Below are positions 1 to 62,254 of a DNA stretch of 64,000 bases, one piece after another. Position numbers and translations under genes: made by a program. The first letter of the stretch is position 1, and each line of letters starts with the position of its first letter. Under the pieces are notes generated by a model. It worked only from the letters and a program-made list of their open reading frames with translations, did not search any database and had not been told where the DNA came from. Source of the DNA: Nitrospirota bacterium (GTDB lineage Bacteria > Nitrospirota > Thermodesulfovibrionia > Thermodesulfovibrionales > Dissulfurispiraceae); NCBI GenBank assembly GCA_963790025.1, contig CAWBMP010000004.1, positions 960,001 to 1,024,000 on the forward strand. Direction: 5' to 3'.

Positions 1-2357
1 AAGCCGTTTTTGTTTATGCCACCTGCGTAAGCGGGCTCATTGGTGAAGATATAGAGTCGGTTTGTAAAAGGGCTGAAAACAAGCTCGGGGTCCGGGTCAT
101 CCCGGTCAATGCCCCCGGCTTTGTCGGGCCCAAAAACCTGGGCAACAGAATCGCAGGTGAGGTGCTGCTCGACTCCGTGATAGGAAGGGCAGAGCCAGCT
201 TTGACCACTGACTTTGATATCAACCTTATCGGCGAATATAACATTGCTGGTGACATGTGGTTTGTCGAGCCCGTGCTTAAAGCTGCGGGAATCAGGGTCC
301 TGTCCAGGATCACAGGCAATGCCACCTTCGAAGAGATAACCCATGCACACAGGGCAAAACTTAATGTAGTGGTATGCAGTCGCGCATTGATCAATGTGGC
401 GCGGACGATGGATACAAAATACGGGATCCCTTATGTCGAGGTCTCTTTCTTCGGCAGGACTGAGATGGCAAAGGCCTTGCGCGCAATTGCGGAAAATCTG
501 CAGGGCGCGGAAAGGGCACAGCTTCCAGGCTTGAATGAAAAGGTTGAGGCGGTCATTGCAGAAGAGGAACGACGACTCGAAGAGGGCTTAAAAAAGTTTG
601 AGCATCTCAGGGGGAAAAAGGCGGTACTTTATACAGGCGGCGTCAAAAGCTGGTCTTTTATCTCGGCCCTTATGGACCTGGGGATAGGCATTGTCGCTGT
701 GGGGACAAAGAAGAGCACCGTCGAAGATGAGGAGAAGATGATATCTCTGCTGGGAGAGAATGCGCCGCTGGTGGAAGACGTGGCCCCAAAAAAACTTCTG
801 GGCCTGATGATCGAAAGGAAGGCGGACATCCTTGTAGCGGGTGGAAGAAATCAGTATCTTGCAATAAAAGAGGGATTCCCCTTTGTGGATGTGAACCAGG
901 AGAGACATACGGCGTATGCAGGATATGAAGGTCTCCTGAATTTGGCGCAGGATATTAGTAATAGTATTGAATTCTATGACAATGGTAAAAGGCAAAAGGT
1001 AAAAAGCGAAAGGCATAAAAAAGAAATCGGATCACATACGCCGGAAGACAGCGGGCTTGCAGCCTTTAACCCTTCACCTTTAACCATTAACCCTCTGAAA
1101 CATTCTCAGACCATAGGCGCTGCTATCGCTATGCAGGGGGTTGATGAGGCGCTGCCGGTGATCCATGGCGCACAGGGCTGCACATTTCTTGCAAAGGTGC
1201 TTCTGACAAAGCATTTCAGGGAGCCCATCGCCCTTGCCGGCACAAAGCAATTTGCCGAAGATATCATCATGGGAAGCGAGGAAAGCATCATCGGCGTGGT
1301 CGAGGGATTTATCGAAAAACAAAGCCCCGCAGTGGTTGGGGTCCTTTCCTCCGGACTATCAGAGGTGAAAGGTGATGATATAGGCTCAGCGATAAAGAAT
1401 ATCAGTTCTCCCCATGGCCCCTCCGGACCGGCATCGAAGGTGATAGCCATTACGACCCCTGATTACGAAGGGGGATTGGAAACAGGTTACACAGCTGCAG
1501 TGGAGGCCCTTACAGGCCTGGCCGCCAGGGGCACTCAAATGACAAAAGGTAGTATCAATGTTCTGGCCGGTTCACACCTGACACCCGCCGACTTCTCTGA
1601 GTTGAGGGAGATAATCGAAACGTTTGGCTTGCATCCTGTAATTCTCCCTGACCTCTCAGCCCTGGACGGCAGCAGACAGGGATTTTCCGCACTCGCAACC
1701 GGAGGAACAGAACTGGATGAGATCGAAACCATGGGCAGCGCCGAATTCACCCTTGCGATTGGAATGAGCATGGAGTCCCCGGCAAGGCGATTAAAGGAGC
1801 GGTTCGGCATTGAATACAAAGTGCTTGAGAGCATTGCAGGTCTGGGTGATACAGATCTATTGATGGAGACGCTTTCCCTGCTTAGCGGCAACGATGTACC
1901 GCTAAAGAACTTGAGACAGCGGCGCATTTTGGTTGACGGGATGAGAGATGCTCATTTTTACTTCGGCAAGAAAAAAGTGAGTTTGGCACTCGAACCTGAC
2001 CTTTCGGTGCAGACCTCGCGATGGCTCTCGGAAATGGGCGCTGAGGTAGTGCTTTCAGTCATTCCTCACGCTGCAGTGTCGGAAAAAAGTATCCAGGCAC
2101 GGAAGGTAATTATTGGAGGCCTGTGGAACATCAGGGATGACATAAAGGGACACAAAAGCGACCGTGGCAATGACTGTGATCTCCTGATCTCGAATTCTCA
2201 CGCGGAGGACACTGCCATGTGCTGCGGCATACCTCTTTACCAGTTGGGTTTTCCCCTCTATAAAATATTGAGTGGAAATTCCAGGATAACCATCGGGTAC
2301 AGGGGAACGCTCGGACTTATTAACGATGTGGCGACAATTTTTGCAGGAAAACACTAA
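1..2357 (+). CDS. nifEN: Fused nitrogenase FeMo-co scaffold NifE-NifN (5' truncated by window edge)
   Basis: Frame is open from the window edge (AVFVYATCVSGLIGED...). NifE motifs (YTGGVKSW) run without a stop into NifN motifs (INPLKHSQ, HGAQGC). Confidence 0.93.
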   Translation, partial: AVFVYATCVSGLIGEDIESVCKRAENKLGVRVIPVNAPGFVGPKNLGNRIAGEVLLDSVIGRAEPALTTDFDINLIGEYNIAGDMWFVEPVLKAAGIRVLSRITGNATFEEITHAHRAKLNVVVCSRALINVARTMDTKYGIPYVEVSFFGRTEMAKALRAIAENLQGAERAQLPGLNEKVEAVIAEEERRLEEGLKKFEHLRGKKAVLYTGGVKSWSFISALMDLGIGIVAVGTKKSTVEDEEKMISLLGENAPLVEDVAPKKLLGLMIERKADILVAGGRNQYLAIKEGFPFVDVNQERHTAYAGYEGLLNLAQDISNSIEFYDNGKRQKVKSERHKKEIGSHTPEDSGLAAFNPSPLTINPLKHSQTIGAAIAMQGVDEALPVIHGAQGCTFLAKVLLTKHFREPIALAGTKQFAEDIIMGSEESIIGVVEGFIEKQSPAVVGVLSSGLSEVKGDDIGSAIKNISSPHGPSGPASKVIAITTPDYEGGLETGYTAAVEALTGLAARGTQMTKGSINVLAGSHLTPADFSELREIIETFGLHPVILPDLSALDGSRQGFSALATGGTELDEIETMGSAEFTLAIGMSMESPARRLKERFGIEYKVLESIAGLGDTDLLMETLSLLSGNDVPLKNLRQRRILVDGMRDAHFYFGKKKVSLALEPDLSVQTSRWLSEMGAEVVLSVIPHAAVSEKSIQARKVIIGGLWNIRDDIKGHKSDRGNDCDLLISNSHAEDTAMCCGIPLYQLGFPLYKILSGNSRITIGYRGTLGLINDVATIFAGKH

Positions 2358-17557: not shown

Positions 17558-19025
17558 ACTAAAAATAAAGGAGGGAATATGACACCAAAAGATGTACTGA
17601 AGATGGCGCAGGAAAACAAGGCTGTAATGGCAAACTTCAAGTTTCTTGATTATCCCGGGATATGGCAGCACTTTGGAGCACCAATCTCGGAATTAACGGA
17701 GGATGTATTTGAGAGCGGACTGGGTTTTGACGGCTCCTCGATAAGGGGCTGGCAGGCTATACATACGTCTGATATGCTGATAATTCCGGACCCATCCACG
17801 GCCTTTATCGACCCCTTCATGGAATACCCGACCATAAGCCTCATCTGCAATATCATGGACCCGATCACCAAAGAGTTTTATACAAGAGACCCCCGCTATA
17901 TTGCTCAAAAGGCGGAGGCCTATTTGAAATCTACCGGGATTGGTGATACGGCGTATTTCGGTCCTGAGGCAGAGTTCTTTATTTTTGACGACATCATGTT
18001 CGACCAGAACTCACACAGCGGCTATTATTTCATCGATTCAGTTGAAGGTATCTGGAATTCGGGCCGTGATGAAAAGCCGAACCTCGGCTATAAGCCAAGG
18101 CATAAAGAAGGCTATTTCCCTGTTCCTCCAACCGACAGTCTCGTCAACCTGAGAACAGAGATGGTCATGGAAATGCTGAAATGCGGCATCTATGTGGAAA
18201 AAGAACACCATGAAGTGGCCACTGCGGGGCAGGCCGAGATAGATATGAGATTTGAGTCCCTGCTCAAGATGGCGGACAATCTCATGCTCTTCAAATACAT
18301 AATCAAGAATGTCGCAAAGAGGCATAACAAGACAGTTACATTCATGCCGAAGCCCCTTTTCGGCGACAACGGTTCGGGGATGCATACACACCAGAGCATA
18401 TGGAAAAACGGAAAGCCTGTTTTTGCAGGCAATGGCTATGCAGGCCTTAGCGAAACAGCACTCTACTACATCGGCGGCATACTGAAGCACGCAAAATCCC
18501 TGGCAGCCATTACCAATCCAACAACCAATTCATACAAAAGATTGACCCCGGGCTTTGAAGCGCCGGTGAACCTTGCCTACTCTGCAAGAAACCGTTCGGC
18601 TGGAGTCAGGATACCAACTTACTCTCCAAGCCCGAAAGCAAAGAGGGCAGAAGTAAGGTTCCCTGACCCCTCATGTAATGGCTATCTTGCCTTTGCAGCC
18701 ATGCTGATGGCAGGACTTGACGGCATCGAAAATAAGATACATCCGGGCGAGCCGCTCGATAAAGATATTTACGAACTCGGCCCCGAAGAGCTTGCATCGG
18801 TGCCGACCATGCCTGGAAGCCTCGAGGAGGCCCTCGGCAACCTTGAAGAAGACCACGATTACCTGAGGAAAGGCGATGTCTTTACCGAAGACGCACTGGA
18901 AACGTGGATAAGCTACAAGAGGTCAAAAGAAGTGGATGCCCTACGACTGAGGCCGCACCCTTATGAGTTTTTCCTGTATTACGATATTTAAGATACTCTT
19001 TACATAATGACAAAAAAAGGGGGAC
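17558..19025 (+). repeat. About 1.47 kb direct repeat, copy 1 (RBS + glnA + start of terminator)
   Basis: Matches 23936-25403 at constant offset 6378; one substitution seen. Confidence 0.95.
17579..18991 (+). CDS. glnA: Glutamine synthetase type I, copy 1
   Basis: [30 protein letters not shown], adenylylation loop DIYEL. Confidence 0.98.
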
Positions 19026-23935: not shown

Positions 23936-25403
23936 ACTAAAAATAAAGGAGGGAATATGACACCAAAAGATGTACTGAAGATGGCGCAGGAAAACAAGGC
24001 TGTAATGGCAAACTTCAAGTTTCTTGATTATCCCGGGATATGGCAGCACTTTGGAGCACCAATCTCGGAATTAACGGAGGATGTATTTGAGAGCGGACTG
24101 GGTTTTGACGGCTCCTCGATAAGGGGCTGGCAGGCTATACATACGTCTGATATGCTGATAATTCCGGACCCATCCACGGCCTTTATCGACCCCTTCATGG
24201 AATACCCGACCATAAGCCTCATCTGCAATATCATGGACCCGATCACCAAAGAGTTTTATACAAGAGACCCCCGCTATATTGCTCAAAAGGCGGAGGCCTA
24301 TTTGAAATCTACCGGGATTGGTGATACGGCGTATTTCGGTCCTGAGGCAGAGTTCTTTATTTTTGACGACATCATGTTCGACCAGAACTCACACAGCGGC
24401 TATTATTTCATCGATTCAGTTGAAGGTATCTGGAATTCGGGCCGTGATGAAAAGCCGAACCTCGGCTATAAGCCAAGGCATAAAGAAGGCTATTTCCCTG
24501 TTCCTCCAACCGACAGTCTCGTCAACCTGAGAACAGAGATGGTCATGGAAATGCTGAAATGCGGCATCTATGTGGAAAAAGAACACCATGAAGTGGCCAC
24601 TGCGGGGCAGGCCGAGATAGATATGAGATTTGAGTCCCTGCTCAAGATGGCGGACAATCTCATGCTCTTCAAATACATAATCAAGAATGTCGCAAAGAGG
24701 CATAACAAGACAGTTACATTCATGCCGAAGCCCCTTTTCGGCGACAACGGTTCGGGGATGCATACACACCAGAGCATATGGAAAAACGGAAAGCCTGTTT
24801 TTGCAGGCAATGGCTATGCAGGCCTTAGCGAAACAGCACTCTACTACATCGGCGGCATACTGAAGCACGCAAAATCCCTGGCAGCCATTACCAATCCAAC
24901 AACCAATTCATACAAAAGATTGACCCCGGGCTTTGAAGCGCCGGTGAACCTTGCCTACTCTGCAAGAAACCGTTCGGCTGGAGTCAGGATACCAACTTAC
25001 TCTCCAAGCCCGAAAGCAAAGAGGGCAGAAGTAAGGTTCCCTGACCCCTCATGTAATGGCTATCTTGCCTTTGCAGCCATGCTGATGGCAGGACTTGACG
25101 GCATCGAAAATAAGATACATCCGGGCGAGCCGCTCGATAAAGATATTTACGAACTCGGCCCCGAAGAGCTTGCATCGGTGCCGACCATGCCTGGAAGCCT
25201 CGAGGAGGCCCTCGGCAACCTCGAAGAAGACCACGATTACCTGAGGAAAGGCGATGTCTTTACCGAAGACGCACTGGAAACGTGGATAAGCTACAAGAGG
25301 TCAAAAGAAGTGGATGCCCTACGACTGAGGCCGCACCCTTATGAGTTTTTCCTGTATTACGATATTTAAGATACTCTTTACATAATGACAAAAAAAGGGG
25401 GAC
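23936..25403 (+). repeat. About 1.47 kb direct repeat, copy 2
   Basis: Matches 17558-19025. Confidence 0.95.
23957..25369 (+). CDS. glnA: Glutamine synthetase type I, copy 2
   Basis: Translation identical to copy 1. Confidence 0.98.
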
Positions 25404-29419: not shown

Positions 29420-30252
29420 TCACGCCACAACCGCGGGTCGAGCGCGTCGCGTAATCCTTCCCCGACAAGATTATAACTCAGCACCGTAATAAGAATGGCA
29501 AAGCCCGGGAAAAGCGAAAGCCACCACGCAACAGTAATATTATCCTTTCCCGATGTAAGGATATTCCCCCAGCTCGGTTCAGGCGGCTGTACGCCAAGCC
29601 CCAGGAATGACAGGGCCGATTCGGTCAGTATCGCCCCGGCAATACCAAACGTAGCGGCCACAAACACGGGAGAAAGGGCATTTGGGATGATGTGCCTGAA
29701 AATAATTCTGGGATTGCTCGCGCCGATTGCCCTTGCAGCCGAAACGAAGTCGCGCTCTTTGAGTGTCAAAAATTCCGCCCTGACAAGCCGGGAAACGTCC
29801 ATCCAACCAGTAAGCCCAATAATAATCATTATCGTGGAAATGCTCGGCTCGACAATCGCAATGACTGCCAGTATCAGGAAGAATGTTGGAAAGCAAAGCA
29901 TTATATCGACAAACCGCATAAGCAGAGAATCTATTATGCCTCCGTAATATCCCGCCATAGCGCCGAGGACAGTTCCTATCGTTATTGCAATGCCTACGGC
30001 GATAAAACCAACTTTCAGGGATGAGCGGCTGCCCCATATCATTCGCGACAAAACATCCCTGCCCAATTCATCGGTCCCGAACGGATGGGCCGCATTGGGA
30101 GTTGACAGGACATCGTAAACGTTAATAGCGGTCGGACTGTAAGGAGCGATAATGGGAGCAAACAGCGCGACCATGGCAAGGAGCAGAATAATAATCGCCC
30201 CTGTCACAGAGAGTGGATTCTTCTTGAACCTGTTCCAGATTATACGAAGCAT
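29416..30252 (-). CDS. Peptide/nickel ABC permease (DppC/OppC-like)
   Basis: HPFGTDELGRD, ESALSFLGLG. Confidence 0.92.
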   Translation of the reverse strand: MLRIIWNRFKKNPLSVTGAIIILLLAMVALFAPIIAPYSPTAINVYDVLSTPNAAHPFGTDELGRDVLSRMIWGSRSSLKVGFIAVGIAITIGTVLGAMAGYYGGIIDSLLMRFVDIMLCFPTFFLILAVIAIVEPSISTIMIIIGLTGWMDVSRLVRAEFLTLKERDFVSAARAIGASNPRIIFRHIIPNALSPVFVAATFGIAGAILTESALSFLGLGVQPPEPSWGNILTSGKDNITVAWWLSLFPGFAILITVLSYNLVGEGLRDALDPRLWRE

Positions 30253-45753: not shown

Positions 45754-46737
45754 ATGAAGATAGGAATTGATGTAGGATACGGGTATACCAAGGTCGTCAC
45801 AACGCATTCCTCAATTATCTTTCCATCCCGTGTGGGTCCTGCCAGGGAGTTGTCGTACTCGCTCAAAGAAGGCACTGACGTTATGGGAGAAACTGTCGAA
45901 TATGAGGGCGAACGATATTTTGTAGGGGAGAAGGCAAGACATAGCGATGTTACCTACACCCTCATGACAAGAGGCTGGATCGAGAGCAAGATGTATGGGG
46001 CATTGCTTACTTCGGCCCTTACCAGGGCAATGAACGGCAGATATGCTTTAGCTGACCCTGAAGAAATAATTATTGTCACCGGCCTTCCCGTAGATTATAT
46101 GAGAGATAAAACCAAAGCCGAAGAGAGCCTCGGAAAGGCGTGCGATGGGATTGGCCTCCGTATCACAGGCATCAATATAATACCGCAGCCTTTCGGCTCT
46201 TTTTTTGACATGTTTTACGATAATAACGGTGATATTGCCGGCAGCGCACCTTTCTTAAAAAGGATTGGGATAGTCGATATCGGTTATCACACCACGGATT
46301 ATATTCTTATCGAGGAGGCTCAACGCAATATCGAGAAGGCCTCTGGCAGCGTTCCTACTGGGGCCCATGAGATATACGATATTGTAGCCAGAGAATTAAA
46401 GAACATGTTCGACAGAGATACAGTTACTGCGGAAGAGGCCGAGCACTGCGTTAAAACCAAACATTATAAAGTCTCGGGTCAAAACAAAGATATGGGTACC
46501 CTGGTTGGCCGAGTGCTGTCACAAGTGGGGCAAAAGATAACTGGTATTGTTAAATCTAAATGGAACCTTGAAGGAGAAATTGACATTGTCCTGCTAACCG
46601 GAGGCGGAGCTGCGCTTATTCAGCCGCACATCTCATCTATAGCGCATACTCACTTCCTGATAAATGAACCCCAGATGGCCAATGCGCGAGGATATTATAA
46701 GAGGAGCGTCATCCTGGAACGAAAAATTAAAGGTTAG
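45754..46737 (+). CDS. ParM/StbA-family actin-like ATPase
   Basis: GIDVGYGYTK, TGLP, PQP, DIGYHTTD, LTGGGA, ANARGY. Confidence 0.9.
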   Translation: MKIGIDVGYGYTKVVTTHSSIIFPSRVGPARELSYSLKEGTDVMGETVEYEGERYFVGEKARHSDVTYTLMTRGWIESKMYGALLTSALTRAMNGRYALADPEEIIIVTGLPVDYMRDKTKAEESLGKACDGIGLRITGINIIPQPFGSFFDMFYDNNGDIAGSAPFLKRIGIVDIGYHTTDYILIEEAQRNIEKASGSVPTGAHEIYDIVARELKNMFDRDTVTAEEAEHCVKTKHYKVSGQNKDMGTLVGRVLSQVGQKITGIVKSKWNLEGEIDIVLLTGGGAALIQPHISSIAHTHFLINEPQMANARGYYKRSVILERKIKG

Positions 46738-46752
46738 CGGAGACATGGGCGG

Positions 46753-47049
46753 ATGGAAAAAACAGCAATATGCTTCATACGATTGTACCCTGATAATCCG
46801 GAGGATGCCCTTATTATTGCCGGCCTCGGCACAAGAAAAAGAAAAGGGGAGAAATCCAGGGTCATAAAAGACATACTTTATGCTCATTTCAGAAATAAGA
46901 AGAGCAGTCTCCCGGAACCGCCAACCGAATCACGCAAGGGGATTAAAGGACCATCGTCTCAGCTCCATCCGAAAAGCACTGCGCTGTCGGATGATGAAAA
47001 AGTGACATTAAAAAAGAACCTCGACGAACTTTCAGATATGCTTATGTAG
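46753..47049 (+). CDS. Putative ParR-like adaptor
   Basis: Small basic gene right after the ParM-like gene; RHH-like N-terminus, Pro-rich linker, acidic C-terminal helix. Confidence 0.6.
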   Translation: MEKTAICFIRLYPDNPEDALIIAGLGTRKRKGEKSRVIKDILYAHFRNKKSSLPEPPTESRKGIKGPSSQLHPKSTALSDDEKVTLKKNLDELSDMLM

Positions 47050-50725: not shown

Positions 50726-51319
50726 CTAAACACCTGCTGCCGCAGTCAGCGCCGAGTATGGCACAGCACGGCGGGCCCATTCGCTCCCCGGGTATTTCTC
50801 CGTCAGGGTATCGTAAGCCCTGCGCAATGGTGAAGCCTCATGAAACTTCTTGTACTCGGCCACACCCAGATAAAAAATAGCCTCTGGAGTTGCCCCTGCA
50901 TTTGGATGCTGCTCTATGACTGAAGTGAATGCCTTGATCGCGTCGTTAAAGTGGTCGGTGTCGAAAAAGACCTTTGCCCTGCCAAGTTCAAGATGGGCAA
51001 GCAGGTCATCAATGGGGACATATCCCACTATCCGGTGGTGCTCTTTCCCCGACTTACCGTGGATTATAAGGGTCGGGGTCCATTTGATGTTAAATTGTTC
51101 CATAAGCTCAACCGGCTTATCAAAGAAGCACTGGGTTTTCAGAGGAATGAAATTATCCTGGATAAACTTCTGGACCTGCTCACTTGAATACGGACCCGTA
51201 TTCATTGCAGCGCAACCAATTCAACCGTCAAACCAGAAATCATGATAGATCGGCTTGCCTTCCCTTTTAGCCTTTTTTATTGCCTCGTTGAAGTTCCCTT
51301 CCCATATTATCTCGGCCAT
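50726..51319 (-). CDS. Selenocysteine thioredoxin-fold + TPR-like protein (UxxC), 197 aa
   Basis: SD GGAGG, MAEIIWE...DFWFDG-U-IGC; in-frame TGA 51223-51221; hairpin TGAATACG-GGTC-CGTATTCA 16 nt downstream; WTPT cis-Pro motif. Confidence 0.85.
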
Positions 51320-51359: not shown

Positions 51360-54300
51360 TCATTTATCATGAAACTGACCTGATGTCAAACACCCTGTTC
51401 CTGCACGCACCCGTTTGCCGGTGATTATCCTTGACGCATTGCTTTCAAGTGTATCTATCCTACCCTCAAATGCTGCATTAGCCAAAATCGTGGTTGTCCT
51501 CTGAAATGCTGCCGACGCAAGAAAACTTTTTGAGTACAGCGGTATCTGACTGATGCCGAGGAGCACGGGAGTCGCTGTCGGAGGCTTCAAGCCTCTTCGC
51601 CGGGTCCTGTCACACTCATCTTCAAATTCGCTCTTATGAATAATATCACCTGTCAGAAACCTTGCCCCCCGGCTGTCTGTAACTTTCACAAATCCGGTCA
51701 TCTGGCTAAGTATTATTTCAAAATGCTTGTCATGTATTACCACTCCCTGTTTGCGGTATATCTTCTGGGCTTCATCGAGTAAATATTTCCACACTGCTCC
51801 GCCACCTGCAGCATGCAACAGATCATGGGGGTTGACTGCACCGTCAATGTTACTGAGCTCCGCCGCTCTGCGCGGCCTTCTTGCTTCAAGAAGGTCAATA
51901 ACCTCCGGAAGCCCGCCGGTTATGTCCATGGGAGTGACAACTGCTCCACCGGTATGAAATGTTCGCAGGGTAAGCTGGGTCCCGGGCTCACCTATGGACT
52001 GAGCTGCGATAATACCCACCGCGTCCCCTGTCTCTGCGGGCCTGCGGCTGCCGACATTGAATCCGTAGCAGCGCGCACAAACGCCGCGTTGCGCCTTGCA
52101 GGTAAGCACAGACCGCACTTTGACCTTTTCTATTTTTGCCTTGCTGATTTTTGCCGCTGTCGCTTTATCCAAAACGGTGCCATACGATACGAGCACAGTG
52201 CAGGAGTCTATGTCCAGAACGTTATCTGCCAATGCCCTGCCGGTTATTCTCTCCTCCAGAGAAATTTCTACTGTACCGCCGTTCTTCAGCGGTCCAAGGT
52301 AAATGCCTTCGAGCGTCCCGCAATCATCCGTAGTTACGATGAGGTCACGCGCAGCACTCACCAGCCTTCTCGTAAAATAGCCCGCCGCCGGCGTCTTCAT
52401 GGGGCCATCCACCCTGCCCTTTCGCGCCCCGTGCGTGGAAAGAAAAAACTGGAATGCACTTAACCCTTCTCTGAAATTCGATGTAATCGGCATTTCTACA
52501 ATTTCACCCGTGGGCTTGGCCATCAAACCCCTCATGCCGTTTATTTGGCGTATCTGGTTGAAGTCGCCTCTCGCGCCAGAATCACACATCATAAAAAGGG
52601 CATTGGATTCTACATGCCGGTCTTCTTTTAATACGCGCATCGCTTCAGATGTTATCCTGTCGGTTGCTCTCGTCCATACGTCGATTTCCTTATTATGCCT
52701 TTCGTTGTCAGACATCAAACCGGTTTCATAATGGCTCCTCACCTCCGCTGCTTCCTCCTCTGCCTCAGCAACAATGGCCGCCTTTTCGGAAGGGACGAGC
52801 ATGTCATCAAGACAAAGCGATATGCCCGACAACGTCGCATATTTAAACCCAATGCCTTTTATCTCATCCAGAAACCTGATCGTCTCCCTGACGCCGCACT
52901 TTTCATAGCACAACTCGATTAAGCCGGCAAGTTCCTTTTTATTTAAGACTTTATTTATTACCGCGAAGGGTATACCTGCTGGAGTTATGGCATAGAACAG
53001 CACCCTTCCAGCCGTTGTTCTTACCAAGGCGCCATCTATTCTGACCTGAATGCTGGAATGTTCTTCTACAATATTGTTTGCATATGCAATACACACCTCG
53101 TCCACATCCGAGAAAAGCATTCCTTCCCCTTTTCCCCTTTTTCCCGATTTCCCATCGCTGGTCAAATAATAAATACCCAGGACAATGTCCTGAGACGGCA
53201 ATAAAGCAGGCCTGCCGTTGGCCGGATGGAATAAATTGTTAGTGGACATCATGAGGACCCTCGCCTCTATCTGTGCTTCAAGTGAGAGAGGCACATGCAC
53301 TGCAATGGTATCTCCGTCAAAATCGGCATTGAAGCCCGAACACACAAGAGGATGGAGCCTTATTGCAGCGCCTTCAACAAGGACAGGATCAAAGGCTTGC
53401 ATGCTTAATTTATGCAAAGTCGGCGCCCGGTTTATTATGACTGGATGCTCGGCAATTATATCATCGAGGGCGTCCCAGACTTCTGGTTTCTCTTTTTCAA
53501 AAAGCCGCTTTGCCTGTTTCAGCCTTGGGGCAAACCCATTTTTAATAAGCCACCGGTATATAAATGGCCTGAAAAGCTCAAGTGCCATTGCCTTCGGAAT
53601 GCCGACCTGATGGATTTTCAATTCCGGCCCTATAGTAATATGTGCCCTTCCGGAATAGTCGACCCTTTTGGCAAGAAGATTATGTCTGAATATTCCACTC
53701 TTAGAGCTTATCATCTCTGAGAGCGATTTAAGCGGCCTTTTTTGAGACCGGTTTTTGACGGCAACATTCCTGCCATTGTCGAGCAGGCTGTCAACTGCGG
53801 CCTGAAGAAGCCTTTTTGCATTCTGAAGTATTATTTCTGGAGCGCCGAGGTGAATAAGTCTTCGCAAGCTTTGATTTTTGTAAATGACCTTGCTATAAAG
53901 CAGATTAAGATCGGAGGCAACAGTAGTCCCGGCGTCAGGAAAAATTATGGGGCGCAGGTCAGGGGGCAATACAGGCAGCATGTCTAAAATCATCCACTCC
54001 GGTTTGTTTCCGGACTTCAGGAGTTTCTCGATCAAAGAGAGTCTGCTTCTTTTTCTCAGGGATAACGTGCCATTCTCTTTAAGTCCCTTCGGAATGGCAT
54101 CCAGGTCAAGGCCTGTAAGTAGTTTCCTGATCGCTTCCGCACCGGTTTCAACATGGAAATGATCGCATGAAGTCCGGTATTTTCTGTACTCTTCATGTGT
54201 AATTGTCTGGTTCTGTTTGAGACCGCTGTCGCCCGGATCAATTACAACATAAAATTCGTATTGCACGATTTTTTGGACCTGCCGGGGAGGCAGTCCCAGT

Positions 54301-54671
54301 ATCCTTGCAAGAACGCTTTTAGGCCCTTTGTAATACCAGATGTGCGCAACAGGCGCAGCGAGAGTTATGTGGCCGAGTCTTTTTCTTCTCTCTTCCGGTT
54401 CCAGCAGCCCCGTACCGCAAGTCTTACATGAGGCTGCTCCACCGTTATCTGTGCCACAAGAACATTTACCCTTTCTTACCGGGCCGAATATTCCTTCGCA
54501 GAATAACCCATTTTTTACCGGGCCGCCATTTTTTAAACTGAATGTTTCCGGCGAAGACACCTCGCCATAAGATAATAAACTCTTCCCGAGGGGACTTAAA
54601 AGACCGATTCTAAGAGAATCAAATGCCTGATTATCGATCATAGGTTGTTGGCTGCAGGGACATGCCTCCAT
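51360..54671 (-). CDS. rpoC: Orphan divergent RNA polymerase beta-prime paralog (1103 aa; start uncertain)
   Basis: GLFCEGIFGP, PVLPPDLRP, KRVDYSGR, NRAPTLH, NADFDGD, SGARG, GEPGTQLTLRTFH, DITGGLP, DKHFE, AGTG. Confidence 0.95.
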   Translation of the reverse strand: MEACPCSQQPMIDNQAFDSLRIGLLSPLGKSLLSYGEVSSPETFSLKNGGPVKNGLFCEGIFGPVRKGKCSCGTDNGGAASCKTCGTGLLEPEERRKRLGHITLAAPVAHIWYYKGPKSVLARILGLPPRQVQKIVQYEFYVVIDPGDSGLKQNQTITHEEYRKYRTSCDHFHVETGAEAIRKLLTGLDLDAIPKGLKENGTLSLRKRSRLSLIEKLLKSGNKPEWMILDMLPVLPPDLRPIIFPDAGTTVASDLNLLYSKVIYKNQSLRRLIHLGAPEIILQNAKRLLQAAVDSLLDNGRNVAVKNRSQKRPLKSLSEMISSKSGIFRHNLLAKRVDYSGRAHITIGPELKIHQVGIPKAMALELFRPFIYRWLIKNGFAPRLKQAKRLFEKEKPEVWDALDDIIAEHPVIINRAPTLHKLSMQAFDPVLVEGAAIRLHPLVCSGFNADFDGDTIAVHVPLSLEAQIEARVLMMSTNNLFHPANGRPALLPSQDIVLGIYYLTSDGKSGKRGKGEGMLFSDVDEVCIAYANNIVEEHSSIQVRIDGALVRTTAGRVLFYAITPAGIPFAVINKVLNKKELAGLIELCYEKCGVRETIRFLDEIKGIGFKYATLSGISLCLDDMLVPSEKAAIVAEAEEEAAEVRSHYETGLMSDNERHNKEIDVWTRATDRITSEAMRVLKEDRHVESNALFMMCDSGARGDFNQIRQINGMRGLMAKPTGEIVEMPITSNFREGLSAFQFFLSTHGARKGRVDGPMKTPAAGYFTRRLVSAARDLIVTTDDCGTLEGIYLGPLKNGGTVEISLEERITGRALADNVLDIDSCTVLVSYGTVLDKATAAKISKAKIEKVKVRSVLTCKAQRGVCARCYGFNVGSRRPAETGDAVGIIAAQSIGEPGTQLTLRTFHTGGAVVTPMDITGGLPEVIDLLEARRPRRAAELSNIDGAVNPHDLLHAAGGGAVWKYLLDEAQKIYRKQGVVIHDKHFEIILSQMTGFVKVTDSRGARFLTGDIIHKSEFEDECDRTRRRGLKPPTATPVLLGISQIPLYSKSFLASAAFQRTTTILANAAFEGRIDTLESNASRIITGKRVRAGTGCLTSGQFHDK

Positions 54672-54773
54672 TATTTTGTCGCAACAAGACGCTATAGTAA
54701 ATATTACTTTCTTAATTGATATTTACGGCATTTGTTTTACGATATGTATATCGATGATATTTTAGGAGGACAA

Positions 54774-55019
54774 ATGGTAACAACTACAATATCACCTAAA
54801 TATGAGGAAGAAGCACTTGTTGCAGCAGGTCTTATCAACAGGACATCGGTTATTAAGCTCACTGAAAGCATTGCTATCTTCGCAGCAGACCTGAGCCTGA
54901 AATGCGGGCTGCCGATGGCCGATGCTGTTGTATACGCCACTGCACGGGAGGAAGATTGCCAGGTAGTGACTGGTGATGCCCATTTTAAGGGGCTCGACAA
55001 AGTTGAGTTTATTTCATAA
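54774..55019 (+). pseudogene. Collapsed vapBC: AbrB-type antitoxin N-terminus fused to the C-terminal half of a PIN toxin
   Basis: SD AGGAGG; MVTTTISPKY then ...LPMADAVVYATA..VVTGDAHF; PIN N-terminal acidic motif missing. Confidence 0.7.
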
Positions 55020-58825: not shown

Positions 58826-59107
58826 AAGAATCCTCTTTTTATTGTCCCGTCCCCTGTAGGGGGGTAAAAACCAGGGGACGGGAATGTTAGGCCTTCATCA
58901 GGATATTACTTTTAAATTCTTCTCAGTGTACCCAGGAGATTATTTCTCCATTATGATTTATTGTTTCATTGTGCAATAGGAGGGACATCGATTACATAAA
59001 ATTCTTGACATTTTTATATAATCCTTCTTAATTTACCGTATGTGCTTTGATTATTCGGGGTGATTAGTTCCAGAACTCTGCGCACTACTATGCTTAAGGA
59101 GGTATGT

Positions 59108-62100
59108 ATGGGCGTATCCAGAAGAGATTTCCTGAAGATTTCCGGCGGATCTGTTCTTGCGGGGTCTTTGGGAGTGGGAGTTAAACAGGCAGAAGCAGAT
59201 ACAGCAGAGCTTAAAATCAAAAATGCAAAAGAGACCCTTACCATATGCCCATTTTGCTCCGTGGGTTGCGGCATTGTTGTACACTCGGCAAACGGCAAAG
59301 TCATAAATACCGAGGGCGATCCAGATCACCCCATAAACGAAGGCACGCTCTGCTCAAAAGGCTCCTCGATGTATCAGGTCATAAACAATCCGTCCCGGCT
59401 CACAAAGCCGCTCTACCGTGCACCAGGCGCCGCTCAATGGAAAGAGGTTGAGTGGGAATGGGCCTTTGATGAGATTGCAAATAGAATAAAAGATACGCGT
59501 GACAGGACGTTCAAAACCACCTCAAAGTCAAAAGTGAAAGAAAAGGGCCCTGATGGAAATGAAGTAGAGGTAGAGAAGGAATTCTTGGTCAACCGGACCG
59601 ACGGGATCGCCCATGTGGGAAGCGCCGCCCTTGATAATGAGGAATGCTATCTGATACAGAAATGGGTCCGCTCTCTGGGACTTGTTTATGTAGAGCACCA
59701 GGCCCGAATATGACACTCCGCAACTGTAGCGGCTCTGGCAGAGTCGTTCGGACGCGGTGCAATGACAAACCACTGGATAGACCTCAGGAATGCCGATGTT
59801 ATTCTCGTAATGGGTGGAAACCCTGCGGAAAACCATCCCATATCAATGAAATGGATCATGATGGCCAGGGAGAGAGGCGCAAAACTCATAGTCGTTGATC
59901 CGCGTTTTACCCGTACTGCAGCAAAGGCCGATATATATGCCTCACTTCGTTCAGGGACCGATATCGCTTTCCTCGGCGGCATGATTAAATACATTTTCGA
60001 TCACAACCTCTACTTCAGGGATTATGTCGTGAATTATACCAATGCAGCATTTCTTGTTAATCCTGACTTCAAAGGCCCTGGAGAATTGGAAGGACTCTTC
60101 TCCGGATATGACCCCAAAGCCAGAAAATATGATAAAAAGACATGGTCCTTCCAGATGGACGCAAGCGGCGTACCGAAGAAAGACCCGACACTCAAAGATC
60201 CCCATTGTGTTTTTCAGCTGCTAAGGAAACAGTATGCACGTTATACTCTCGATAAAGTTTCAAGCATTACCGGGACCCCGAAGGAAGACCTCCTGAAGGT
60301 ATACAAAACTTATGCCTCAACCGGAAGGCCGGACAGGGCAGGCACCGAATGTTACGCAATGGGCTGGACCCAGCATACGGTAGGGACCCAGAATATAAGG
60401 ACCATGTCAATAATCCAGCTCCTTCTCGGCAATATTGGAATAGCCGGGGGTGGAGTAAACGCCCTGAGAGGCGAATCCAATGTCCAGGGTTCTACAGATC
60501 ACGGGCTGCTTTTCCACGTATTGCCGGGTTATCTTCCGGTGCCCAGTGCTACAGTTGTTGATCTGAAAGCCTACATAGACAAATTCACCCCGAAGACAAA
60601 AGAGCCTAAAAGCGTGAATTGGATGAGCAATATAGGCAAATACATGACGAGTTACCTGAAAGCTATATACGGGGACCATGCGACAAAGGAAAATGATTTC
60701 GGATATGCCTGGCTTCCCAAGCCCGATGAAGGAATGAACGCATCATGGCTCATGATTTTTGACCAGATGTTCAAGGGGAAATTCGATGGTTTCTTTGCCT
60801 GGGGACAAAATCCCGCATGTTCGGGTGCGAATTCTATCAAGACGAGAAAGGCACTGGCAAAGCTGAAATGGATGGTGAATGTAAATCTGTTTGATAATGA
60901 AACAGGCTCGTTCTGGAGGGGCCCCGGAGTGAATCCAAAAGAAATTCAGACTGAGGTCTTCATGCTTCCATGCTGCTCATCGGTTGAAAAGGAAGGCAGC
61001 ATCTCTAATTCAGGGCGCTGGGCACAATGGCGATACAAGGCGATACCTCCTATCGGCCAATCCAAACCGGACAGTGACATCATGAATGAACTCTTCTTCA
61101 GAGTAAAAAAACTCTACGCCCGCAAAGGCGGTGCATTCCCAGCCCCGATACTGAACCTGACATGGAACTATGGTGAAAGAGGTCCGGACGGGAAGGTCAA
61201 AGAGATCAATACTCACCTCATCGCCAGGGAGATTAACGGGTACTATCTTGAAGACCTATTTGACAAGAAAGCCACTCCTCCAAAGCAGCTCGGGAAGAAG
61301 GGAGAACTCTGCGCCACCTTCGTGCATCTTCAGGACGACGGATCTACGTCATGCGGCAACTGGATATATAGCCAGAGTTATACTCAGAAAGACGGGAAAA
61401 TCATTAATATGATGGCGAGGAGGAAAAAGACCGATCCTACAGGGCTGGGACTTTATCCTGAATGGTCGTGGTGCTGGCCAGTGAACAGGAGGATAATCTA
61501 CAATCGCGCATCCGTTGACCCGCAAGGCAGGCCGTGGGACCAGAAAAGGGTCCTTCTTAAATGGAACGCCGAAAAAGAAGATCCCAACACAAAAAAGCCC
61601 GGCGTATGGGAAGGAGATGTGCCTGACGGCCCTGCTCCTCCGTTAGCTTCGGAAAAAGGGAAATACCCTTTCATCATGAAGCCGGATGGCGTGGGTTCTG
61701 TGTTCGGGCCGGGACTTAATGACGGGCCGTTCCCTGAACATTATGAGGCGCTCGAATGTCCCGTGCATGAAAATCCGATGTCGAAGCAGAGGATCAATCC
61801 CGCAATCAAACTTTTTGCTGATACAGACACGTTCTCGTGTGATTTAAGGTTCCCTTACGTGGCTACAACATATCGCATTTCCGAGCACTGGCAGACAGGT
61901 GTCATGACGAGGCATGAGCCGTGGCTGCTTGAGGCGGTCCCGCAGCAGTTCGTCGAAATGAGCGAGGAGCTTGCCAGGGACAAGAATATTAAATCAGGCG
62001 ATAAAGTAACTATAAAATCCGGTCGCGGCGAAATATGGGCCGTTGCAGTGGTGACAAAAAGATTCAAGCCTTTTAAGATCGCGGGCGGCATAGTGCACCA

Positions 62101-62254
62101 GGTAGGGCTGCCGTGGTGTTTTGGATGGCAGTATCCCGAGGACGGCAGCGGAGGCGACAGTTCCAATATTTTGACCTCCACCATTGGTGACGCAAATACC
62201 ATGATCCCTGAATCCAAGGCCTTCATGGTGAATATCGAGAAGGCAAAGGTATAG
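59108..62254 (+). CDS. fdnG: Formate dehydrogenase alpha subunit, selenocysteine, Tat-exported
   Basis: SRRDFLK; CPFCSVGC; HQARI-U-HSATV (TGA 59711-59713) in frame with ORF 59762-62254; SECIS-like GCGGCTCT-GGC-AGAGTCGT. Confidence 0.95.

Follow-up and report, generated by a model that had tools for sequence, protein, structure and literature searches.

A candidate accessory β′ subunit of RNA polymerase encoded near conjugation-type genes in Nitrospirota

In the textbook view, bacteria have one RNA polymerase core, and sigma and elongation factors alone retarget it; the clamp helices of its β′ (beta-prime) subunit are the docking site of sigma region 2 and of NusG-type factors. Duplicated genes for two other subunits are already published, for β in Nonomuraea and other actinomycetes (PMC5431353) and for α in Francisella (PMC3294249). 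NGN domains bind the clamp helices, and among the NusG paralogs RfaH activates the F conjugation operon and ActX is encoded in plasmid pilus operons (PMC7819879). No description of a bacterial rpoC paralog was found in the literature searched. Here we describe such a gene, P0001, located in a stretch of 64 000 nt from a Nitrospirota bacterium, placed in the Thermodesulfovibrionales by the names of its database hits (the window; positions 960001–1024000 of contig C4 of G000, the genome carrying it). The reading we favour, which stands at even balance in our estimate, is that this sequence encodes a functional accessory β′, derived from a Nitrospirota-type rpoC, fixed in a conjugation-type island and swapping into part of the core enzyme. 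A preliminary description of the window had noted, at 53780–54550 (residues 41–297 of the paralog), promoter- and sigma-contacting surfaces said to be selectively rewritten.

The paralog, its altered elements and its relatives

The P0001 product exceeds the cut-off of the TIGR02386 rpoC equivalog profile (1262.6 versus 963.5 bits), has all five Rpb1 Pfam domains in a profile search and aligns collinearly over its whole length, at 50% identity, with the housekeeping β′ of G000. The latter (1369 aa) is encoded on contig C2 directly 3′ of the sole rpoB; the paralog is solitary on C4, outside the rpoBC operon. Judging from the alignment (Table 1), the catalytic centre is kept: the NADFDGD motif is intact, the trigger-loop Arg and His are present and the four zinc-binding Cys (70, 72, 82 and 85) are invariant in all 40 aligned sequences. 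The ∼185-aa trigger-loop insertion of the housekeeping copy is absent at paralog residues 911–914 (alignment columns 936–1119), and the missing jaw stretch corresponds to a match to PF21668 (RPOC_hybrid) at 1135–1195 of the housekeeping protein P0002. Also missing are ∼10 aa at residue ∼682 as well as the C-terminal tail. The Leu-to-Arg and the two Ala-to-Pro changes of the bridge helix and its surroundings are present in the three short and four long forms aligned; they are absent from the housekeeping copies there and from four outer family members (the second copy of G011, P0180, P0134 and P0155).

The rewriting of named surfaces between residues 41 and 297 was borne out element by element, while the deletions in the trigger loop and jaw and the conjugation-type context had been overlooked. 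At the zipper, the paralog reads SPETFSLKNGGPVKNG and the housekeeping copy KPETINYRTFKPERDG. The zinc-binding domain reads CSCGTDNGGAASCKTC versus CLCGKYKRMKHRGVICDKC, with its four Cys but with the basic loop gone (no Lys or Arg remains in this loop, likewise in the short orthologs compared). The lid is IIFPDAGTTVA versus LVPLDGGRFAT, and the clamp helices read YSKVIYKNQSLRRLIHLGAPEIILQNAKRLLQAAVD, with the proposed R275K, R293Q and E295A changes confirmed. Residues were numbered by alignment to the solved β′ chain 7xya_D, with NADFDGD counted at 458–464, a numbering that we take to equal that of E. coli β′. In this numbering, the clamp-helix substitutions are R270S, R271K, N274Y, R275K, R278S, R293Q, E295A and E301A; A302 is retained. 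Substitution of β′ R275, E295 or A302 impairs holoenzyme formation (PMC8321222); the paralog, with K, A and A at these positions, keeps one of the three.

The zipper motif ETINYR(T/S)F(K/R)PE occurs in all 102 housekeeping-type hits (P0020–P0121) and the clamp pattern YRR(V/I)INR(N/D)NRL in 101 of them, P0072 being the non-match. All 17 paralog-type hits (P0003–P0019, with P0015 lacking the N-terminus) deviate at the zipper/clamp motifs. Across this set of aligned proteins, the zipper and clamp differences from ordinary β′ are no chance drift.

The claim that the rewriting is selective held up weakly. We used an alignment of 11 full-length short paralogs, five long paralogs and 103 housekeeping proteins, in which the housekeeping set shows an invariance of at least 95% at 620 sites; sequence segments delimited by assumed element boundaries served as proxies for the surfaces. 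At these 620 sites the paralogs have the same residue in 366 cases and another, fixed residue (in at least 90% of the 11 short forms) in 95 cases, and 159 sites are variable. Because sites and sequences are non-independent, the following p values are to be read as approximate: changed sites number 73 of 153 in residues 41–297 versus 181 of 467 elsewhere (odds ratio, OR, 1.44; p = 0.058), 47 of 100 in the four named elements versus 207 of 520 (p = 0.18), 52 of 92 in the C-terminal residues 936–1103 (OR 2.1; p = 0.0012) and 68 of 222 in the catalytic core segments (OR 0.50; p = 9e-5). The named surfaces are thus changed, but their enrichment over the rest of the protein, which the preliminary description had put forward for sigma and DNA interfaces, is weak; the C-terminus is changed more, and the catalytic core alone is spared. 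As far as segments can tell, change in the paralog is widespread, with the catalytic centre spared and the flagged surfaces mildly enriched. By the same count, fixed differences are enriched in the clamp helices (11 of 36 sites versus 84 of 584 elsewhere; p = 0.015).

The paralog is under purifying selection and is not decaying. The ratio of non-synonymous to synonymous substitution rates (dN/dS; Nei-Gojobori on pairs, with housekeeping frames taken stop-to-stop) is 0.109–0.206 in 10 out of 10 pairs from five genomes, at dS of 0.4–1.6; housekeeping rpoC gave 0.012–0.030 over the same ten genome pairs. Pair by pair, the dS of the paralog is near that of the housekeeping gene, consistent with vertical descent and divergence along with the host. 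Regional dN/dS values are 0.059 for the clamp helices, 0.075 for the active site, 0.097 for the trigger loop, 0.15 for the zinc domain, 0.19 for the zipper and 0.35 for the lid (residues 233–252). The two lowest non-overlapping windows of 45 codons are 410–454 at the active site (ratio of proportions, pN/pS, 0.042) and 259–303 at the clamp helices (0.056); the clamp window 253–297 ranks 23rd among 1038 such windows. That the active site alone is more constrained than the clamp helices argues for a docking surface that is retargeted or kept, not lost, and by these ratios the rewritten helices are held by selection in their new form.

Full-length open frames of the paralog are present in G000, G003, G006, G009, G018 and G090. 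In G001, the gene lacks its C-terminus at a contig end. In G007, it is split by a frameshift; this copy was considered as a pseudogene and rejected, the frameshift being doubtful because the housekeeping rpoC of the same assembly is frameshifted too.

Close relatives of the paralog are few. Among the 50%-identity representatives searched, the only close clusters were P0003 (79%) and P0017 (58%); the remaining representatives were at most 48% identical, save P0127 (61%), which is a fragment of 965 aa carrying long-form motifs. When 317 genomes of the order were queried with the first 340 aa of the paralog, matches at 70–77% were found in G000, G001, G003, G006, G007 and G009 and at 53% in G018 and G090, and no further genome rose above the housekeeping level. 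The plasmid collection gave 69 matching records, all at most 47% identical and housekeeping-like, and a related-locus search with the whole paralog returned solely housekeeping rpoC of other phyla (45–54% identity). Long forms of the family (1306–1401 aa) keep the trigger-loop insertion and the jaw, and their zipper is already changed. In a tree of 51 rows, eight short forms, five long forms, the second copy of G011, P0134, P0155 and P0180 form one clade (support 100), and this clade of 17 rows joins 18 rows of Nitrospirota housekeeping proteins against 16 outgroups (support 97). The topology fits an origin from a Nitrospirota-type rpoC, although the tree comes from a quick LG+G4 search with long branches, so that the family origin is provisional, as is the placing of P0134, P0155 and P0180. 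Loss of the insertion and the jaw was an independent event in P0155 (1114 aa). A second rpoC at G013:C203 was dropped from the paralog counts; it is probably from a second strain or contamination because it sits inside the housekeeping clade.

Two other sequences were met in these searches. The second rpoC of G011 (1311 aa; G011:C98:44000-63999) has two N6/N4 DNA methylase genes upstream, the nearer ∼1.4 kb off, and a GGDEF gene directly 3′; no transfer genes were seen within 8 kb. A 181-codon frame at G012:C58:30401-30865, with 33% identity to paralog residues 20–173, may be a fragment of another β′-like gene.

Transfer-gene linkage and readings of the paralog

Upstream of the paralog lies a trio of genes for a TraC/VirB4 ATPase, a VirD4/TraG-type coupling protein and a protein of 260–270 aa. 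The trio was found in all nine genomes that have the N-terminal part of the paralog (G000, G001, G003, G004, G006, G007, G009, G018 and G090). It directly adjoins the paralog in G018, where reading frames overlap, and in G090, with 38 bp between, the third protein having 270 aa in these two; in G006, one extra gene follows the trio and then a 43-bp gap. In G000, the trio (C4:1031002-1025653) starts 1.6 kb beyond the window end, and VirB11-like, SLT, TraG_N, TraF-like and TraU genes lie beyond it. The transfer genes at C4:1026432-1037429, 2.4–13.4 kb past the window end, match PF19044/PF11130, PF02534, PF00437, PF01464, PF07916, PF06834 and a TraF-like thioredoxin. The coupling protein is present in exactly the eight of 41 relatives that have the paralog and in none of the 33 others; in G002, the trio and the paralog (save a 62-aa remnant) are both gone. 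The transfer island looks old and vertically kept, partly decaying while the paralog stays open.

The other core subunits are encoded by single genes. G000 holds one rpoB, one rpoA and one rpoZ; G009, G011 and G018 each have one rpoB, G003 has one that is split, and in G006, where a contig ends inside the rpoBC region, rpoB was not detected. The active centre of multisubunit polymerases is formed by two barrel domains. Given single β, α and omega genes and a paralog holding only the β′ half of the active centre, replacement within the core is the most likely arrangement. What we observe are the sequence features, the purifying selection, the single-copy state of the other subunits and the linkage to transfer genes; assembly into the core, altered factor binding and any role in the island are inferred. 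The proposed conjugation-type type IV secretion island runs TraU, TraF-like, TraG_N, SLT, VirB11-like, TraC/VirB4, coupling protein, relaxase-like 260-aa protein and paralog, with a convergent ParM-like gene and its small partner after it. The paralog would replace the housekeeping β′ in part of the core enzyme of the cell. Its trigger-loop insertion and jaw, modules shaping pausing and open-complex stability, are deleted, and its clamp helices have been rewritten and then held fixed by selection. The resulting polymerase variant would differ in the factors it prefers and would pause less, possibly serving island-linked transcription much as RfaH/ActX-type factors, through the clamp helices, serve conjugation operons. 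In a bolder version, which we consider doubtful, the chromosomal island's own β′ would turn part of the host polymerase into an island-dedicated enzyme, rid of the pause-promoting trigger-loop insertion and jaw and with a private docking surface at the clamp helices, reading long transfer operons or starting on transferred single-stranded DNA, free of host sigma and NusG control: a subunit-swap counterpart of RfaH/ActX.

Several points weigh against an accessory β′ fixed in a conjugation-type island. The dN/dS of the paralog is 6–8 times the housekeeping value. The gene is broken in G004 (three pieces, with two frameshifts and one TAG), deleted in G002 save for a 62-codon remnant and not found in G005 or G008 (assemblies 81% and 74% complete); some relatives can do without it. 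In G000 and G007, the trio is parted from the paralog by 11–17 kb that hold formate dehydrogenase and other unrelated genes. In-frame stops interrupt the coupling-protein gene of G001, G003, G004 and G007, and since the paralog is still open in G001 and G003, its role may not depend on transfer. The genomes are related, so the co-occurrence rests on about two genera and few loss events. As to a relaxase, the 259-aa G006 ortholog of the third trio protein scores 25.2 bits against PF13814 (Replic_Relax), just under the cut-off of 25.3, and the third trio proteins of G000 and G018 gave no Pfam match. An integrase was absent among the open reading frames (ORFs) scanned (at least about 90–110 aa, over about 64 kb). 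Finally, the C-terminal third of β′ is needed for β binding (PMC8321222), and this third is the most changed in the paralog, so that assembly with the housekeeping β is not assured.

Some of these points would also suit a duplicate heading for loss, with no present function and with surfaces rewritten by relaxed constraint: the raised dN/dS, the G004 pseudogene, the G002 deletion, the G007 frameshift and the decay of neighbouring transfer genes in four genomes, together with the 159 housekeeping-invariant sites that vary among paralogs. We regard this as very unlikely, given dN/dS of 0.11–0.21 at substantial dS, full-length open frames in six genomes, constraint patterned with minima at the active site and the clamp helices, and 95 sites fixed to a new residue in the short forms; the G007 frameshift is itself doubtful.

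For sigma docking, G000 has four sigma70-family genes (encoding sigmas of 473 and 508 aa, a FliA-like and an ECF sigma), one sigma54 gene and two NusG-family genes. Taken in its strong form, the preliminary description would have a paralog that no longer binds the primary sigma and relies on another sigma (e.g. sigma54) or on sigma-independent initiation. Two elements that presumably lie near promoter spacer DNA, the zipper and the basic zinc-domain loop, are changed, and the genome offers the sigma54 and sigma70-family genes just listed. Two of the clamp-helix changes, R275K and E295A, also hit positions at which substitution impairs formation of the holoenzyme (PMC8321222). Loss of sigma binding is nevertheless unlikely on the sequence data. 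Constraint on the clamp helices, which is second only to that on the active site, means that some partner still docks there; moreover, the R275K change is conservative, and A302 is unaltered. In region 2.2, the two large sigmas of G000 retain DLIQEGNIGLM, a segment that holds residues named as contacts of the β′ coiled coil (PMC8321222). No sigma-like gene was seen among the island ORFs scanned, and the sigma profiled across relatives is not specific to carriers.

Among the sigmas, partner profiling covered the one of 508 aa. This sigma does not co-vary with the paralog: orthologs at 65–69% occur in the paralog-free genomes G010, G014, G016 and G024, and it was rejected as a dedicated partner, being spread across the order. 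A 163-aa NusG paralog, whose gene adjoins an epimerase gene, was likewise rejected by its presence/absence pattern; it is present in G002, G010, G014 and G036 without an intact β′ paralog and was not found in the carriers G006, G007 and G018. An SNF2 partner was rejected too, as G000 gave no match to PF00176.

Separately, the 508-aa sigma, which is group-2-like, has 5–8 matches in each of G003, G004, G006 and G008, and some of these are truncated or interrupted by stops; in G000 it is single, beside the primary sigma. Sigma genes of this type thus seem to have expanded in a lineage-specific manner in relatives of the genus.

The location in a transfer-type island would also agree with a resistant β′ copy, one that escapes an inhibitor of RNA polymerase or a protein with which a competitor or phage binds the enzyme. 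Changes cluster in the N-half of the bridge helix (Leu to Arg, two Ala to Pro), the zinc-domain loop, the lid and the rim-helix region, all of which we take to be inhibitor-binding places. The second rpoB of some actinomycetes, which confers drug tolerance on the enzyme, would be an analogue, as in Nonomuraea (PMC5431353). We hold this reading to be distinctly unlikely: 50% divergence over the full length and large deletions exceed by far what resistance needs, and the scanned ORFs yielded neither biosynthetic nor toxin genes. To our knowledge, no polymerase inhibitor is known for this group.

Lastly, the paralog might be a stand-alone polymerase or a primase-like enzyme acting on transferred single-stranded DNA without the usual polymerase subunits, for which the prophage enzyme YonO is a precedent. 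The position of the gene away from rpoB, the much changed C-terminal third and the linkage to DNA-transfer genes would agree with this. Such an enzyme is extremely unlikely in view of the collinear homology to the entire β′, which supplies only one of the two barrel domains, and no second barrel-bearing gene was found beyond the single rpoB.

Coordinates and other features of the locus

Table 1. Elements of the β′ paralog and neighbouring genes (positions in the window)
Feature	Position	Residues	Strand	Basis and remarks
rpoC paralog P0001, candidate accessory β′ subunit	51360..54671	1103 aa	−	ORF and translation, TIGR02386, five Rpb1 domains
Zipper position	54519..54542	44–51	−	Alignment; FSLKNGGP for INYRTFKP
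Zinc-binding domain	54417..54464	70–85	−	Alignment; basic loop replaced by a neutral/acidic one, 3 aa shorter
Lid	53916..53948	242–252	−	Weakest constraint among the named elements
Clamp helices	53781..53915	253–297	−	Rewritten yet strongly conserved among orthologs
NADFDGD catalytic motif, intact	53310..53330	448–454	−	Alignment; within the window of lowest pN/pS
Bridge-helix region	52317..52424	750–785	−	GRVDGPMKTPAAGY versus housekeeping GLADTALKTANAGY; Leu to Arg and two Ala to Pro
Trigger loop, minimal	51879..51986	896–931	−	Arg903 and His906 kept; Met to Leu at 902
Junction with ∼50 aa of jaw missing	51843..51848	942/943	−	Alignment columns 1147–1196
159-aa thioredoxin-like/TPR gene, downstream of the paralog	50726..51205		−	PF13098
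98-aa gene paired with the actin-like gene	46753..47049		+	Orthologs beside the ParM-like gene in six loci; no Pfam match
ParM/actin-like protein gene	45754..46737		+	PF17989 (ALP_N), PF21522, PF21523; convergent to the paralog locus in both genera

Downstream of the paralog, the ParM-like gene has orthologs at 78–82% in six genomes of the genus (G002, G003, G004, G006, G007 and G009) and at 50% in G018, and it also adjoins the paralog in G090. By its position alone, the paired 98-aa gene is a putative ParR-like adaptor. Orthologs of the 159-aa gene lie by the paralog locus in four of the loci compared (G007, G002, G003 and G009); that of G002 is kept despite the deletion of the paralog. Counts of promoter-like sites (6 versus 5.2 expected) and terminator-like sites (3 versus 4.3 expected) gave no signal. 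DNA upstream of the paralog is unconserved among orthologs, save for the ribosome-binding and start region in G003, G009 and G004. No tRNA gene was found in window positions 30000–64000. Of the sequencing runs listed as containing the paralog, five were of DNA and none was of RNA.

Directly upstream of the paralog, on the other strand, a 95-aa ORF (54732–55019) matches the C-terminal half of a PIN domain (profile positions 53–119 of 120) and is probably, from this partial match, a toxin-gene remnant. In G003, a gene for a group II intron reverse transcriptase/maturase (L018, 11529–12887) lies between the relaxase-like gene and the paralog. The formate dehydrogenase block, which parts the paralog from the transfer genes in G000 and G007, includes a formate dehydrogenase-like gene at 59060–62254 with an in-frame TGA at 59714–59716 (…HQARI*HSATV…), presumably the usual place of selenocysteine. 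Beyond the transfer genes, G000:C4:1024001-1064000 contains genes for a secretin, several T2SSE ATPases, T2SSF and a pilin-like N-methyl motif (pilus/type II secretion-like), and also an AbiEii-type toxin gene.

Elsewhere in the window there are two glutamine synthetase genes (17558–19025 and 23936–25403; 470 aa each, PF00120/PF03951), 6.4 kb apart. The copies differ at one of 1413 coding bases, and similarity is at background just outside them.

Comparison with known systems

If the favoured reading is true, a second β′ held by selection would be a new way to reprogram transcription, by swapping a catalytic subunit; the data hint at a specialized polymerase not described so far. The paralog is also a natural experiment on which β′ surfaces can change under continuing selection, and roles of the zipper, the zinc-domain loop, the jaw and the trigger-loop insertion are testable in one natural protein.

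The closest comparison is with housekeeping β′ itself. The paralog is like it in being collinear, in its five Rpb1 domains, NADFDGD motif, bridge helix, trigger-loop Arg and His and four zinc Cys, and in its TIGR02386 score. It differs in lying outside rpoBC, in its altered zipper, zinc loop, lid and clamp helices and two bridge-helix-region prolines, in lacking the trigger-loop insertion, the jaw and the C-terminal tail, in its faster dN/dS and in being dispensable in some relatives.

The duplicated rpoB of Nonomuraea and other actinomycetes (PMC5431353) likewise provides a second, diverged large catalytic subunit with the other subunits in common, and the paralog would yield a second enzyme form as there. 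In Nonomuraea, however, the subunit is β and has far fewer changes; here it is β′, which has diverged by 50%, has lost whole modules and is linked to transfer genes. Francisella also has a polymerase subunit as two diverged paralogs, its non-identical α subunits (PMC3294249); both α forms enter one enzyme as a heterodimer, whereas two β′ forms must be alternatives. With the NusG paralogs RfaH and ActX (PMC7819879), the locus would share the link between a transfer-gene cluster and a change at the clamp-helix docking site, and less pausing on long operons would be expected of both. The difference is that RfaH and ActX are small factors acting on normal clamp helices, whereas here the clamp helices themselves would be replaced by way of a new β′.

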